DNA of 3,063 bases from a phage, in the sequence record PZ049712.1. One strand, written 5' to 3'. The position numbers were made by a program, and so were the translations under genes. Shown piece by piece: positions 1 through 3,063 of the stretch. The notes under the pieces are model-generated. The model was given only the letters and a program-made list of their open reading frames with translations. It was not told the DNA's origin and ran no database searches. Each line of letters opens with the position of its first letter. Positions within the stretch are counted from its first letter, which is position 1.

Positions 1-1708
1 GCCGCACCGCCTCGATTCCAACCGTCGTGATGCGCCCTTGCAGTTGCTCGCGAACGATTAGCCGCACTGATCCGGCCATCAATTCGTCCCCCTGACGAGC
101 GCTGCCATCGAGTGCCTCCTTTATCAACTGATCCAGGGGTTGCCCCTTTTCCGCTGCCAGGTCGATACCGTAGGAATTCCACACATCTTCAACCTTGGTG
201 CTGCCCTTGAGCCGGAGTTCAAGGTTTGGCAGATCGGTTCTTGACGCTTCTACCGCCTGGGAAAAAACGCAGTCAACGAAAGGCTGATTGTTTGGCTTGA
301 GGACGACAAACAGATGATCACCGGCTTCAAGCCTGGTCGACCCTCGAGGCGGTATGACGGCCGACCCTCGCGTGATCATCGCCACGACTACGCCTTCGGG
401 CAACGCCATCTGCGAGAGCAAACGGCCGGCGGCTCTCGCATCGTTACCGAGCGTGTATTCGACGATTTCCGCGTCGACATCGTGCAGTGACGAGATTTCG
501 AGAGTCGCGGCGGGCGTCGCTGGTGGCTTCTCCGTCAGCCCCAGCTTGCGCGCGACGAGCGGGAGCGTAGAGCCCTGCACCGTCGCCGATAGCAGAACTA
601 CGAAGAACACAACATTGAAGATCAGGGGCGCATTAGGCAGTCCGAAAAGCAACGGGAAGATTGCCAGGATGATCGGCACCGAACCACGTAGGCCTACCCA
701 GGAAACGAGTGCCGTCTCCCTGAGATTGAAGCCAAAAAGCGCAAGCATTGGTGCGACGGCCAGCGGCCTGGCCAGCAACACCAGGACCAGTGCAATCACC
801 AACCCCTCGACCCACACATCGAGCAGCGAAACCGGATCGACGAGCAGGCCGAGGACTACGAACATGGTGATCTGGCTAAGCCATGCCAGGCCATCCATGA
901 ACAGGAAGGTGCTGCGCTGGAAAACGAATTTCTGGTTTCCGATCATCACGCCAGCGACGAAGATCGCCAGAAATCCGCTGCCGCCCAGATTCGCGGATAC
1001 TCCATAGGCGAGCAATCCGCCGGCCGCAACAAGCACCGGATACAAGCCGGTCGCGACCAGTTTTATCCTGCTCAGCAACCTGAGTATCGACCATCCGACA
1101 CCAAGCCCGACCAGCGCACCTATCCCCATCTGCATCAAAAACATCTGAAGCAGACCCCAGCCAAGCGGCATGCTGTTAACCAGCACCTCCAACAAGCCCA
1201 CCGTCAGAAAGATGGCCATGGGGTCGTTGGACGCGCTTTCAATCTCCAGCACCGACTTGAGCCGCTGATTGATGTGAATTCCGGCGTTTCGCAAGAGAGA
1301 AAATACGGCTGCAGCATCGGTCGAGCCGATGATCGCACCCAGCAACATGCCTTCCAGAACTGGAAGCTCAAGCATCCAGGCAGCTGCGAGCCCCGCGATT
1401 GCGGCCGTTGCGAGTACCCCAACTGTTGCCAGCAGAGACGCTGGCTTCCAAACCTTCCTTATGGACGAAACGGGCGTTTGCAGGCCGCCGTCAAAAAGGA
1501 TAAGCGCCAAAGCCAGGGTGCCGAGGGCATGCGCGGCAACGGCATTATCAAAAACGATCCCGCCGATACCGTTCTCACCTGCAAGCATGCCGGTGATCAG
1601 GAACAACACGAGCACCGGCAGCCCCAGACGGGCCGACAGTTTGCTGGAGAGCACACCGAACAGGATCAGTACTGCTGCCAGCAGCAATAGCTTGTCAATT
1701 GCAAACAC
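1..1708 (-). CDS. nhaP2: K+/H+ (monovalent cation:proton) antiporter, CPA1 family NhaP2/CvrA type, with C-terminal RCK_C (TrkA-C) domain; partial, 3' end beyond the window edge (569 codons present, no stop)
   Basis: Reverse-strand hand translation with codons starting at 1708, 1705, ... is open all the way to position 2. An in-frame TAA (plus 1718..1720) lies immediately upstream, so GTG at 1708..1706 is the first possible start. Product begins VFAIDKLLLLAAVLILFGVLSSKLSARLGLPVLVLFLITGMLAGENGIGGIVFDNAVAAHALGTLALALILFDGGLQTP, which closely parallels the E. coli NhaP2 N-terminus as I recall it. About 390 aa are hydrophobic multi-helix sequence (e.g. LIFNVVFFVVLLSATVQG), followed by a soluble segment LEISSLHDVDAEIVEYTLGNDARAAGRLLSQMALPEGVVVAMITRGSAVIPPRGSTRLEAGDHLFVVLKP typical of RCK_C. 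The plus-strand track ORFs here (354..1007, 1274..1690, 1329..1721) are Ser/Thr/Ala/Arg-rich antisense shadows. Family assignment is from memory, not a search. Confidence 0.85.
   Translation of the reverse strand, partial: MFAIDKLLLLAAVLILFGVLSSKLSARLGLPVLVLFLITGMLAGENGIGGIVFDNAVAAHALGTLALALILFDGGLQTPVSSIRKVWKPASLLATVGVLATAAIAGLAAAWMLELPVLEGMLLGAIIGSTDAAAVFSLLRNAGIHINQRLKSVLEIESASNDPMAIFLTVGLLEVLVNSMPLGWGLLQMFLMQMGIGALVGLGVGWSILRLLSRIKLVATGLYPVLVAAGGLLAYGVSANLGGSGFLAIFVAGVMIGNQKFVFQRSTFLFMDGLAWLSQITMFVVLGLLVDPVSLLDVWVEGLVIALVLVLLARPLAVAPMLALFGFNLRETALVSWVGLRGSVPIILAIFPLLFGLPNAPLIFNVVFFVVLLSATVQGSTLPLVARKLGLTEKPPATPAATLEISSLHDVDAEIVEYTLGNDARAAGRLLSQMALPEGVVVAMITRGSAVIPPRGSTRLEAGDHLFVVLKPNNQPFVDCVFSQAVEASRTDLPNLELRLKGSTKVEDVWNSYGIDLAAEKGQPLDQLIKEALDGSARQGDELMAGSVRLIVREQLQGRITTVGIEAVR
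270..510 (-). other. Segment of nhaP2 encoding the cytoplasmic RCK_C/TrkA-C regulatory domain (approx. residues 400-480)
   Basis: Translated residues about 400-480 (LEISSLHDVDAEIVEYTLGNDARAAGRLLSQMALPEGVVVAMITRGSAVIPPRGSTRLEAGDHLFVVLKPNNQ) follow the membrane domain and have the small mixed alpha/beta pattern of RCK_C domains, including the recurrent G-D-x-L-x-V motif context. Boundaries are approximate. Confidence 0.6.
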
Positions 1709-1719: not shown

Positions 1720-1818
1720 AATTATCTATGCACCGCATTTCTCGCGAGCAGACGCAACGTCGTGATAAGCCGGCGAGCCGACCACACCGCCGGATCAGGT
1801 CAGTTGTAGCTCAGGAGT

Positions 1819-1839
1819 AAAAAGCGCTCATTTTGAGCG
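1819..1839 (-). terminator. Weak intrinsic-terminator-like motif on the minus strand (5-6 bp stem, then C + T5)
   Basis: Minus-strand reading: CGCTC-AAAAT-GAGCG followed by CTTTTT. Stem is plus 1825..1829 pairing with 1835..1839; the T-run is the complement of plus A1819..A1823. The stem is short, so this is low confidence. It would stop minus-strand transcripts arriving from the pgpA side before they enter the nhaP2 promoter/leader. Confidence 0.2.
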
Positions 1840-1908: not shown

Positions 1909-2400
1909 ATGGTCACCCTAGAGGTTCGACAATTGATCTTTGAGCAAGTCGTTTTATTGATTGCCACTGGTTTCGGGCTGGGGTCTTTACCCTGGGTGCC
2001 TGGAACCTTCGGATCACTGCTGGGGATACCACTGGCGTGGTGGCTCTGGGGGCAGGCGCTGACAAGGCAACTGCTGGTCATCACCGCGCTGCTGGCGGTC
2101 GGCGTTCCGCTGTGTCACTGGGCCTCGCGTTGGCTTGGAGGCGGTGATGCCGCGCAGATCGTTGCCGACGAGTACTTCGCCTTTCCACTGGTTTTTTTGG
2201 GAGTGGCCACAACCCATCGATGGTGGCTACTAGGTGCGGGATTCGCACTGTATAGGCTTTTCGATATCACCAAACCGCCCCCCATTGATTTCGTCGAAAC
2301 CATTGGTGGTGGCTTGGGTATCGTTTTTGATGACGTGCTGGCCGCGCTATTGGCTTGGCTCGTTCTGCGTGGGACACAAGCAGTTTGGAGACGCCCGTAG
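1909..2400 (+). CDS. pgpA: Phosphatidylglycerophosphatase A (PgpA), complete
   Basis: Track ORF 1909..2400 (163 aa). It carries PgpA family signatures: LLIATGFGLGSLPWVPGTFGSL (the G-x-G-x-x-P-x-x-P-G-T-x-G-S motif), QIVADEYFAFPL, FALYRLFDITKPPPIDF and GGGLGIVFDDVLAALLAWLVL, which parallel E. coli PgpA segments AVGFGSGLSPIVPGTMGSL, FVIFRILDMWKPWPI and HGGMGIMIDDIVAG (recalled from memory). Stop TAG at 2398..2400. The start is ambiguous between ATG 1909 (no obvious SD) and in-frame TTG 1933, which is preceded by GAGGT at 1921..1925. Confidence 0.88.
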   Translation: MVTLEVRQLIFEQVVLLIATGFGLGSLPWVPGTFGSLLGIPLAWWLWGQALTRQLLVITALLAVGVPLCHWASRWLGGGDAAQIVADEYFAFPLVFLGVATTHRWWLLGAGFALYRLFDITKPPPIDFVETIGGGLGIVFDDVLAALLAWLVLRGTQAVWRRP

Positions 2401-2588
2401 CTCCAGCTCAAAGTCACCCCTACCGACAGTGATTCTAGGCCCAGTCACTCCGCTGCTGTCTGAAACGTTGCATAGGCCAAGATGCTCTCGGCTACAGGTC
2501 GACACCTCGTGTGCTGCTTTCTAGGACGACCCACTGGTCGGCTGTCATGAAACAGGTCCAACCTGCATCAGGTCAGTGTATACCGGTA

Positions 2589-2605
2589 GCGGCCGGTCGG
2601 GCCGC
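2589..2605 (+). other. Stable all-GC hairpin (6-bp stem, 5-nt loop) in the presumed ORF3 leader, 10 nt upstream of the SD
   Basis: GCGGCC-GGTCG-GGCCGC: 2589..2594 pairs with 2600..2605 as six G:C pairs, loop 2595..2599. No T-tract follows (next bases aggctctctggag), so it is not a canonical rho-independent terminator. Confidence 0.35.
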
Positions 2606-2614
2606 AGGCTCTCT

Positions 2615-2618
2615 GGAG
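2615..2618 (+). promoter_or_regulatory. Shine-Dalgarno (GGAG) for ORF3, 6-nt spacer to ATG 2625
   Basis: Sequence ...ctctGGAGatttcgATGtcg; GGAG is at 2615..2618 and ATG at 2625..2627. Confidence 0.55.
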
Positions 2619-2624
2619 ATTTCG

Positions 2625-3063
2625 ATGTCGAAAAAGGCACTGACCCCGCCCTCTGCGGCCTTGCATTTCAATCCATTACGCGTGCAACTCGAACGGCTAC
2701 GTAACGAGATGACGAGCGACGCCTGCCTGGCATCGCTGAAAAATATCCAGGTTCATGAGTGCTACAGGCAAAGCGCCGAGAACCTGCTGCAGTACCTATG
2801 TCTTCGTCGCCATGACCTGCGCGAGTTACAAGCGCAGCTTGCCGAGATCGGTTTGTCGTCCTTGGGCCGCGCCGAGGCGGCAATACTCGCAGCTGTGACA
2901 TCGGTGATGGGCGTGTTGCAGCGGCTCGAAGAGCCGAATACCCAAGAGCCCAAGGCCCCTGAGCGTGGTCTCCACGAGGGTGAGCGTCTATTGGCGGCTC
3001 ACGCCGACGCGCTGTTTGGAAAGGCCCGTGGCACGCGCTCGATTCGAATCATGGTGACCCTTC
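2625..3063 (+). CDS. Hypothetical protein, 5' partial ORF (146 codons in window, runs off the right edge); uncharacterised N-terminal region ending in a pyruvate-kinase-like beta-strand motif (TRSIRIMVTL). Possible PK-family enzyme with an N-terminal extension; unconfirmed
   Basis: Open frame from ATG 2625 to the window end, absent from the track because it has no stop in the window. GGAG at 2615..2618 sits 6 nt before ATG 2625. Translation: MSKKALTPPSAALHFNPLRVQLERLRNEMTSDACLASLKNIQVHECYRQSAENLLQYLCLRRHDLRELQAQLAEIGLSSLGRAEAAILAAVTSVMGVLQRLEEPNTQEPKAPERGLHEGERLLAAHADALFGKARGTRSIRIMVTL. Codon third positions are GC-biased like the neighbouring genes. The antisense track ORFs 2668..2901 and 2762..2953 are Arg-rich shadows. 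The final RIMVTL resembles the KIVCTLGP strand that opens pyruvate kinase barrels, but that is only about 6 residues of similarity. An in-frame upstream ATG at 2547 has no SD and would add a low-complexity Ala/Gly-rich 26-aa extension. Confidence 0.6.
   Translation, partial: MSKKALTPPSAALHFNPLRVQLERLRNEMTSDACLASLKNIQVHECYRQSAENLLQYLCLRRHDLRELQAQLAEIGLSSLGRAEAAILAAVTSVMGVLQRLEEPNTQEPKAPERGLHEGERLLAAHADALFGKARGTRSIRIMVTL

Follow-up and report, generated by a model that had tools for sequence, protein, structure and literature searches.

The spacer between pgpA and a long pyruvate kinase gene probably holds a promoter region that travels with the kinase gene

Layout of the locus

The window, i.e., the whole stretch of 3,063 nt that we analyzed, contains three genes: one for a CPA2 Na+/H+ exchanger with a TrkA-C domain, followed on the other strand by pgpA and by the 5' end of a third open reading frame, ORF3 (Table 1). 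The ORF3 product has a pyruvate kinase barrel, to which PF00224 is assigned in gene calls, and scores 825 bits (cut-off 642) with NCBIfam NF011314, the PRK14725 family of long pyruvate kinases. We refer to it below as the pyruvate kinase (PK) gene. Its start codon at 2625 matches the N-termini of 24 homologues in an alignment that reaches down to 50% identity, and the same start is given by gene calls in 10 genomes. Together with the pgpA stop codon at 2398-2400, this start codon delimits a spacer of 224 bp (2401-2624), the length of which is not unusual for genes on the same strand, given that the spacers upstream of homologous PK genes range from 94 to ~555 bp. A scan for tRNA and tmRNA genes returned none.

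Table 1. Positions of genes, predicted control elements, and repeats in the window.
Feature	Position	Strand	Remarks
CPA2 Na+/H+ exchanger with TrkA-C domain	2-1708	-	
pgpA (phosphatidylglycerophosphatase A)	1909-2400	+	Pfam PF04608, E 9.6e-34; stop TAG 2398-2400
ORF3, 5' end (PRK14725-type pyruvate kinase, 625 aa)	2625-3063	+	exceeds the right window end
Distal, context-specific part of the spacer	2401-2530	+	130 bp; weak hairpin only, no canonical terminator
Weak hairpin	2428-2449		-4.9 kcal/mol; no U-tract
Degenerate duplicate of the predicted promoter's upstream half (TTCTAGG...CTGTC-TGAAAC)	2433-2466	+	86 bp upstream of the predicted promoter itself
Conserved upstream box CCACTGGTCGGCTGTCA	2531-2547	+	consensus CC-R-Y-N-N-R-TC-k-N-c-TGTCA; directly 5' of the putative -35 element
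Putative -35 element TGAAAC (G-A-AAC, group IV sigma type)	2548-2553	+	invariant in all 12 motif-bearing lineages
Putative promoter spacer, 17 nt	2554-2570	+	length kept, sequence free
Putative -10 element GGTCAGT	2571-2577	+	core GTC 2572-2574 invariant; consensus N-GTC-W-K-T
Predicted transcription-start region	2578-2588	+	predicted start ~2582-2586; holds TATACC 2579-2584
GC hairpin GCGGCC-GGTCG-GGCCGC	2589-2605	+	-12.5 kcal/mol; in the predicted 5'UTR
Shine-Dalgarno sequence GGAG	2615-2618	+	6 nt before the ATG; C-T-C-Y-GGAGA in all lineages
AGTCAC, two copies	2412, 2443		
CAGGTC, three copies	2495, 2553, 2569		
TAGG, three copies	2436, 2473, 2522		
Shared 11-mer ATCAGGTCAGT, two copies	2567-2577, 1794-1804		

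Genomic context of the pyruvate kinase gene

The exact pgpA protein of the window is encoded by many genomes of Stutzerimonas (Pseudomonas stutzeri group) including strain A1501 (CP000304), and its gene always belongs to a genomic island that also carries IS elements, genes for copper and zinc resistance and for a TraI_2 relaxase, and the reverse transcriptase of a group II intron. The 625-aa protein with the pyruvate kinase barrel is always encoded 224 bp 3' of this island pgpA, and the spacer is identical to that of the window in ten genome copies. In a plasmid database, the single relevant match was a distant pgpA (66.8% nucleotide identity) in a chromate-resistance context, and the spacer had no match. 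In the literature, we found neither a usable map of transcription start sites for A1501 nor an account of the island's gene trio or of PRK14725.

We gathered homologues of the PK protein and retrieved their genomic surroundings for comparison. A tblastn search of 79 genome loci placed pgpA upstream of PK in a single one, the 100% copy L011, and lineage L091 (a 96% copy) likewise carries the pgpA 3' end; in the lineages other than the island copies and L091, there is no pgpA upstream of PK. Judged by adjacency across genomes, pgpA and PK hence do not form a conserved operon. PK genes with 66-94% identity sit behind unrelated genes on either strand, e.g., genes for a histidine kinase, a TonB-dependent receptor, or a DUF3618 protein. 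In three lineages (L092, L097, and L098), PK and its upstream gene are on different strands, and these neighbors include a fragment of an aminoglycoside phosphotransferase (APH) gene and a gene of the carboxymuconolactone decarboxylase (CMD) family. Since the upstream gene points the other way, PK must be transcribed on its own in these three lineages.

A conserved bipartite block precedes the pyruvate kinase gene

When the window is compared with other PK loci, nucleotide homology begins not at the pgpA stop but at 2505-2527, ca. 100-120 bp before the PK start codon. Because homology sets in upstream of this codon and not at it, the proximal part of the spacer belongs to PK and moves with it. 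From the alignments, we place the boundary such that the proximal 94 bp (2531-2624) travel with the PK gene and the distal part belongs to the junction with pgpA. The suspicion that the spacer is not inert was thus well founded for its proximal part, which is clearly constrained.

The proximal block is found in 12 lineages counting the window, and the PK proteins of the other eleven are 66-96% identical to that of the window. An alignment of the upstream regions reveals a bipartite motif that consists of cTGTCATGAAAC, a gap of 17 nt in 11 lineages and of 16 nt in one (L013), and then GTCAgT, where the second block has the consensus (G/A/T)GTC(A/T)(G/T)T and is near-invariant along with cTGTCATGAAAC. 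Mean pairwise identity, taken from 10 independent lineages, rises and falls accordingly along this stretch: it is 0.36 further upstream (2518-2531), 0.74 in the upstream box (2532-2547), 1.00 in TGAAAC (2548-2553), 0.39 in the 17-nt gap (2554-2570), 0.83 in the GTC block (2571-2577), and 0.32 downstream (2578-2592). The GTC block lies 35-49 nt before the start codon in every lineage. Two short conserved blocks at a fixed distance with a free interior, always placed and oriented alike with respect to the gene, are the textbook mark of a -35/-10 promoter pair.

Among the closest relatives, some of the conservation could reflect shared descent. The lineages with 66-77% PK identity argue against this explanation because their flanking non-coding DNA cannot be aligned.

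We found the motif only upstream of this PK clade when we searched both strands of ca. 1 Mb of collected loci with a regular expression and an nhmmer profile, and a strict pattern scan of metagenomes gave two matches that are both upstream of PK genes. The motif is absent from L106 (65% PK identity) and from homologues with at most 56% identity, which have other upstream sequences, with the exception of Azomonas macrocytogenes (L014; PK 53% identical), where we read tcaTGAAAG-N16-GGTCTGA. This sequence has GAAAG in place of AAC.

The distal part of the spacer (2401-2530) is common only to the lineage of the window and L091. Between these two, its divergence is 16.9%, whereas the proximal part and the flanking coding sequence have diverged by 1.1% and 1.4-2.5%, respectively. 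We considered and rejected hypervariability of the distal spacer: the divergence of this pair is a mosaic in which another bin of 100 nt, within PK, also has 17 differences, which argues for a lack of constraint or a patch of recombination instead of hypermutation. The distal part is also not a dispersed repeat, as no other copies exist in the ca. 1 Mb of collected loci. These 130 bp would be unconstrained junction DNA left when a PK cassette landed behind pgpA in the island.

The block resembles an ECF-type promoter

We consider it probable that the proximal 94 bp are the PK gene's own control region with an ECF-type (group IV sigma) promoter and that the distal part is junction DNA. An alternative sigma factor would then bind both blocks and start transcription of PK independently of pgpA. 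The possibility of an internal promoter had been raised by the initial annotation, and a promoter-like element is indeed present, in the form of an ECF-type candidate recognized by its conservation.

The -35 elements of group IV promoters combine an upstream G with an AAC motif and have G or A in between (PMC1540707; for the -35 pattern also PMC5758882), while ECF -10 elements are short and often CGT-like with spacers of 14-17 nt (PMC5758882). TGAAAC has both the upstream G and the AAC in all 12 lineages (TGAAAG in one distant relative), and the invariant GTC follows at a distance within the described range. The G-A-AAC -35 element, the short -10 element, a spacer within 14-17 nt, and the distance from AAC to TC therefore point to an ECF-type promoter. 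The likeness extends to well-studied examples such as the Bacillus subtilis sigma-W promoter TGAAAC-N16-CGTA, which has the same G-A-AAC -35 (PMC5758882, PMC1540707), and more generally includes a short -10 element with GTC, which is near the CGT/CGTC type, a spacer of 16-17 nt whose sequence is free, and conservation close to consensus. However, there are also differences: the -10 element of ECF promoters is CGT-A/C but N-GTC-A/T-G/T-T here, 17 additional bp are conserved upstream of the -35 element, and an autoregulated sigma gene or any other regulon member is not seen in the ca. 1 Mb of loci.

The core GTC is only similar to the described CGT, and it is preceded by G, A, or T. The search of ca. 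1 Mb of collected loci gave neither a further regulon member nor a sigma gene that bears the motif. In lineage L095, a cluster of ECF sigma factor, FecR, and TonB receptor genes lies upstream of PK, and no similar motif was found 5' of the receptor gene.

Similar systems include the AlgU/RpoE (sigma-22/sigma-E) promoters of Pseudomonas and E. coli. The Pseudomonas AlgU consensus is GAACTT-N16/17-TCTNN (PMC7641640), and the predicted PK promoter shares its distance of 19 nt between AAC and TC, reading TC(A/T)G at the latter; the -10 element of the Azomonas relative, GGTCTGA, is a further likeness. In contrast to AlgU promoters, the -35 element here is GAAACN instead of GAACTT and lacks the T-rich tail (NG for TT), and the -10 element ends in T, not A. 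Because the tail of the -35 element and the end of the -10 element deviate from the consensus, AlgU is a candidate and, from these motif comparisons, only a lead to the responsible sigma factor. For another factor, SigX, the consensus is reported to be undefined (PMC7641640, PMC3875570).

Other promoter classes fit less well. A pattern scan found no sigma-70-like site in the whole window including both strands of the spacer. TATACC at 2579-2584, which the initial annotation had proposed as a -10 element, does not qualify as one: the hexamer varies among homologues (ATACCG, CTACCG, TTTCCG, TTCCCG, TAACCG, and others), positions 17 nt 5' of it show no conservation, and the hexamer itself comes after the conserved -10-like block, where transcription is predicted to start. 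We therefore rejected a sigma-70 promoter at this place, where the scan has no site and the hexamer positions are unconserved. RpoH (sigma-32) recognizes CTTGAAA as -35 element and CCCCATNT 13-15 nt downstream. CATGAAA matches this -35 element at six of seven positions, but the -10 would be the CCCCAT site, and sigma-32 was rejected because this site lies in the unconserved spacer. In the alignments, we further found no conserved GG/GC at the -24/-12 spacing of sigma-54 promoters, and a Pho box was discarded since there is a single CTGTCAT with no second repeat 11 bp away.

Transcription usually starts 5-9 nt downstream of the -10 element, which would place the start of the PK transcript at ca. 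2582-2586. The start region is poorly conserved except for a partial T-N-N-CCG-T pattern.

The upstream box and its likeness to AlgR sites

The upstream box averages 1.47 bits of information per position and may be an extended -35 element or an activator site. With these conserved 17 bp upstream of the -35 element, the block exceeds a typical ECF -35 element, and the additional part could be a transcription factor site.

The block might indeed be mainly an operator for a transcription factor, such as a response regulator of the AlgR kind that binds 2531-2553, next to a weak sigma-70 or other promoter. The conservation of the 17 bp upstream of TGAAAC speaks for such an operator, as do tandem CCTGTCG/CCTGTCA sequences in some lineages (L096) and the first nine bases of the box, which in four lineages (CCGTCCGTC, CCGTCCATC, CCGCTCATC, and CCATTGGTC) match the AlgR box CCGTTCGTC at seven to eight of nine positions, the first three of these being the ones that we count in its favor. 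Variants of the AlgR box such as CCGTTCATC are known to be bound (PMC4064291, PMC4787818). A precedent exists in algD, where an AlgU promoter is combined with the AlgR box RB3 at -45 (PMC4064291): the CC..(G/A)TC 9-mer would lie at ca. -53 to -45 from the predicted PK start and thus reach the RB3 position, but RB3 has the opposite orientation, and far-upstream sites like those of algD are not seen here.

Nevertheless, we regard a block that is mainly an operator as rather unlikely. The 9-mer of the window itself (2531-2539, CCACTGGTC) matches the AlgR box at only six of nine positions and lacks the GT core, and several other lineages reach only five to six. The fixed gap of 17 nt to an invariant GTC, which in turn precedes the ATG by 35-49 nt, is typical of a -35/-10 pair, there are no sigma-70-like hexamers on either strand that would serve the operator as promoter, and their would-be positions are unconserved. 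Nor does a factor site preclude an ECF promoter. The AlgR-box likeness is a lead only and keeps alive the idea that a transcription factor, in addition to a sigma factor, reads part of the block.

Joining both leads, the 47 bp of 2531-2577 could be a composite envelope-stress control region with an AlgU-type promoter and an AlgR-like box that forms a portable cassette with the atypical PRK14725-type PK. We find this combination doubtful. If it were true, a stress sigma factor would control an enzyme of central metabolism at every site that the cassette reaches, such as a metal-resistance integrative element.

Read-through from pgpA

The leading idea of the initial annotation was that pgpA and PK form an operon by read-through, to which we add the corollary of an essentially inert spacer. 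One of its premises is confirmed: a pattern scan found no intrinsic terminator on either strand of 2401-2624, and the spacer has no run of at least four T or A. Both genes are on the same strand, too, which together with the missing terminator and T-run would suit an operon. Read-through itself is not needed, and the adjacency of the two genes is not conserved. As described above, pgpA and PK are neighbors only in this island lineage, while PK keeps its block behind genes of the opposite strand in L092, L097, and L098, and the clear constraint on the proximal 94 bp is at odds with an inert spacer. Moreover, the 224 untranslated nt with their C-rich and G-poor beginning (28 C and 16 G in the first 80 nt) could support Rho-dependent termination, and from this base composition it is conceivable that pgpA transcripts end in the spacer in this way. 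An operon with an inert spacer is thus improbable in our judgment, but transcripts that read through from pgpA may contribute somewhat to the expression of PK.

The predicted leader and its hairpin

Transcription from the predicted start would give the PK mRNA a 5'UTR of ca. 40 nt with the GC hairpin near its 5' end and an exposed GGAG at its other end. In the minimum free energy (MFE) fold of 2584-2627, the Shine-Dalgarno sequence is unpaired and not sequestered by the hairpin. Across 13 sequences, 83% of the cells of the hairpin alignment are paired and the loop has 3-5 nt; this variable loop length argues against a DNA operator of fixed spacing. Most likely, it is a stem-loop that stabilizes the mRNA by shielding its 5' end. 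Known mRNA-stabilizing stem-loops at 5' ends are alike in having a stable GC hairpin few nt from the (here predicted) 5' end and a free Shine-Dalgarno sequence, but the case here differs from them in its weak covariation and in a start site that is a prediction.

It had also been proposed that the spacer carries a regulatory leader or a small RNA, but a search of both strands of the whole window yielded no Rfam match at E-values up to 10. That the spacer encodes a small RNA on one of its strands or a structured leader acting in cis, be it a riboswitch, an attenuator, or a thermosensor, is very improbable in light of this and several other results. The conserved GC hairpin is the best argument for such an RNA, supported by one compensatory change from G-C to A-U (L101) and by L105, where a hairpin of unrelated sequence (AGCA/UGCU) occupies this position. 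However, the covariation of the hairpin is not significant (146 of 500 shuffles), RNAalifold found no consensus structure for 13 5'UTRs, and the region 2395-2640 has no excess folding stability (MFE z-scores of 0.19 and 0.02 for the two strands). The unpaired Shine-Dalgarno sequence, the absence of a U-tract after any hairpin, the unconserved distal half, and a predicted leader of only ca. 40 nt likewise speak against regulation by RNA structure. A large structured RNA element in the spacer is therefore already largely refuted.

Minus-strand promoter and upstream start codon

Read on the minus strand, the two blocks become CTGACC, 18 nt, and TTTCAT, which match TTGACA and TATAAT at four of six positions each and could be taken for a divergent or antisense promoter. 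This is highly improbable, since the critical A is missing from position 2 of TTTCAT, the -35 reading is poorer in other lineages (CAGACT), the scan finds no such site, and the blocks always have the same place and orientation with respect to PK whichever gene lies upstream. We give almost no credence to the idea that the ATG at 2547, which is part of an invariant ATGAAAC and in the window is in frame with ORF3 without a stop in between, starts a leader peptide or a longer form of PK: its frame relative to PK is off in six of 11 sequences of other lineages, where it runs into stops after 10-16 codons or none and a 2-nt indel occurs, the peptide is not conserved beyond what the DNA motif forces, CTGTC and no purine-rich Shine-Dalgarno sequence precedes it, and the N-termini of homologues align at 2625, all of which suggests that this ATG belongs to the -35 block and is not a start codon.

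Consequences for the picture of the locus

With an ECF-type promoter in the proximal 94 bp as the preferred reading, the gap between pgpA and PK would be long because it holds PK's own promoter and leader plus ca. 130 bp of unconstrained junction DNA. The operon picture is corrected accordingly in that PK appears as an autonomous gene, probably under stress-sigma control, and not as a passenger of pgpA, and the distal half of the gap would be junk from gene rearrangement within a mobile island. This explanation is mundane and differs from the one first proposed: the spacer is an ordinary promoter region with no new type of element and no new RNA. The two short blocks and the predicted start nevertheless offer a testable handle on an uncharacterized and very widespread family of long pyruvate kinases, and the conditions that activate the predicted promoter would hint at the purpose of the enzyme.

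Repeats within the spacer

Re-reading the sequence confirmed that the short repeats and other features listed by the initial annotation are all present (Table 1). Their density was taken as a possible signal, which holds for one longer internal repeat but not for the short repeats, as these are mostly incidental. The spacer has 12 repeated 6-mers, where dinucleotide shuffles have 6.5 ± 3.0 and 5% of them reach 12, and a 6-mer present three times occurs in 13% of shuffles, so that the repeat density is marginal, i.e., barely above chance. The longer repeat emerges from a self-alignment of 2433-2466 with 2519-2553 that scores 24, as compared with 15.8 ± 2.0 for shuffles (1 of 200 reaches the score). 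This degenerate duplicate contains a TGAAAC at 2461-2466, has TGCAGC at that site in L091, and lacks a GTC block at the right downstream spacing. It is probably a decaying relic and explains part of the internal repetition of the spacer.

The 11-mer ATCAGGTCAGT shared with the region upstream of pgpA is a match of about chance level (roughly 0.3 expected by our own estimate). Its copy at 1794 was rejected as a second promoter because AAC is missing at the -35 distance and the copy is compatible with chance; the copy at 2567-2577 overlaps the -10 block. Two of the three copies of CAGGTC similarly lie inside the predicted promoter, and only the copy that overlaps the -10 block is kept in homologues.

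Conservation of the putative pyruvate kinase promoter

The putative ECF-type promoter of the pyruvate kinase gene ORF3 (TGAAAC, a 17-nt spacer and GGTCAGT) has a recognizable counterpart far from the Stutzerimonas copies. In Azomonas macrocytogenes (L014:3890-3950), tcaTGAAAG-N16-GGTCTGA lies 5' of a pyruvate kinase homologue that is just 53% identical, and the TCTGA of its -10 element is a textbook match to that of the envelope-stress sigma factors AlgU/sigma-E. Because this distant relative keeps the motif with such a -10, the promoter type may be older than the Stutzerimonas clade. A pyruvate kinase lineage without the motif is represented by a Pseudomonas sp. locus (L106:2995-3088; 65% identical), where the gene follows a same-strand peptidase U32 gene after only 94 bp, so that the promoter module has been lost or replaced there.

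Stutzerimonas also has a second group of pyruvate kinase paralogues (L016, L018 and L019; 55% identical) with a conserved cCAACgg-N17-TCCGA ca. 60-100 nt 5' of the gene. This sequence differs from the TGAAAC/GTC motif, but the AAC-N19-TC spacing is found in both.

Within the window, the 11-mer ATCAGGTCAGT at 1794-1804, 5' of pgpA, exactly repeats the sequence around the -10 block in the pyruvate kinase promoter, with ca. 0.3 such matches expected by chance. At the -35 distance from this copy, AAC is absent and GAGCCG is found instead (1775-1780).

Sequence variation and island context

All 11 near-identical copies compared differ from the window solely at 3056 and 3062, near its right end. Between the island copy L001 and the 96% copy L091, divergence across window coordinates 2244-4943 is strongly mosaic. 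Each 100 nt contains 0-17 differences, patches lie at 2444-2543, 3344-3443 and 3544-3643, and the pattern suggests recombination between pyruvate kinase alleles.

In the 20-kb contexts of L001-L010, the trio of CPA2 exchanger, pgpA and pyruvate kinase genes sits inside a mobile island that carries IS21 and IS3-family elements, a group II intron reverse transcriptase, a TraI_2 relaxase and an integrase alongside metal genes (Cus/Cop-type two-component and P-type ATPase genes and a CDF/MerR pair). At its 3' end, the exchanger gene overlaps a called IS3-type transposase gene, and the exact pgpA protein is listed by 915 blocks of the sequence collection.

Encoded protein and an additional hairpin

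Features of the pyruvate kinase gene and the divergent intergenic region
Feature	Location	Strand	Description
ORF3	window 2625-3063, on into L001:10717-12594		PRK14725-type long pyruvate kinase, 625 aa
Terminator-like hairpin	window 1825-1839	minus	CGCTCAAAATGAGCG then CTTTTTACTC

The ORF3 protein has a conserved N-terminal extension of ca. 140 aa, and its alignment to PDB relatives is confined to residues ca. 335 to 625 (best stretches 333-624). Homologues with ca. 50% identity occur in Pseudomonadaceae, Thiobacillus, Nitrospira, Planctomycetes, Acidobacteria and Bacteroidota; a literature search on the PRK14725-type family found nothing.

The hairpin lies in the divergent intergenic region immediately 5' of the start of the CPA2 exchanger gene and could terminate an antisense transcript or serve as a leader or attenuator for this gene.
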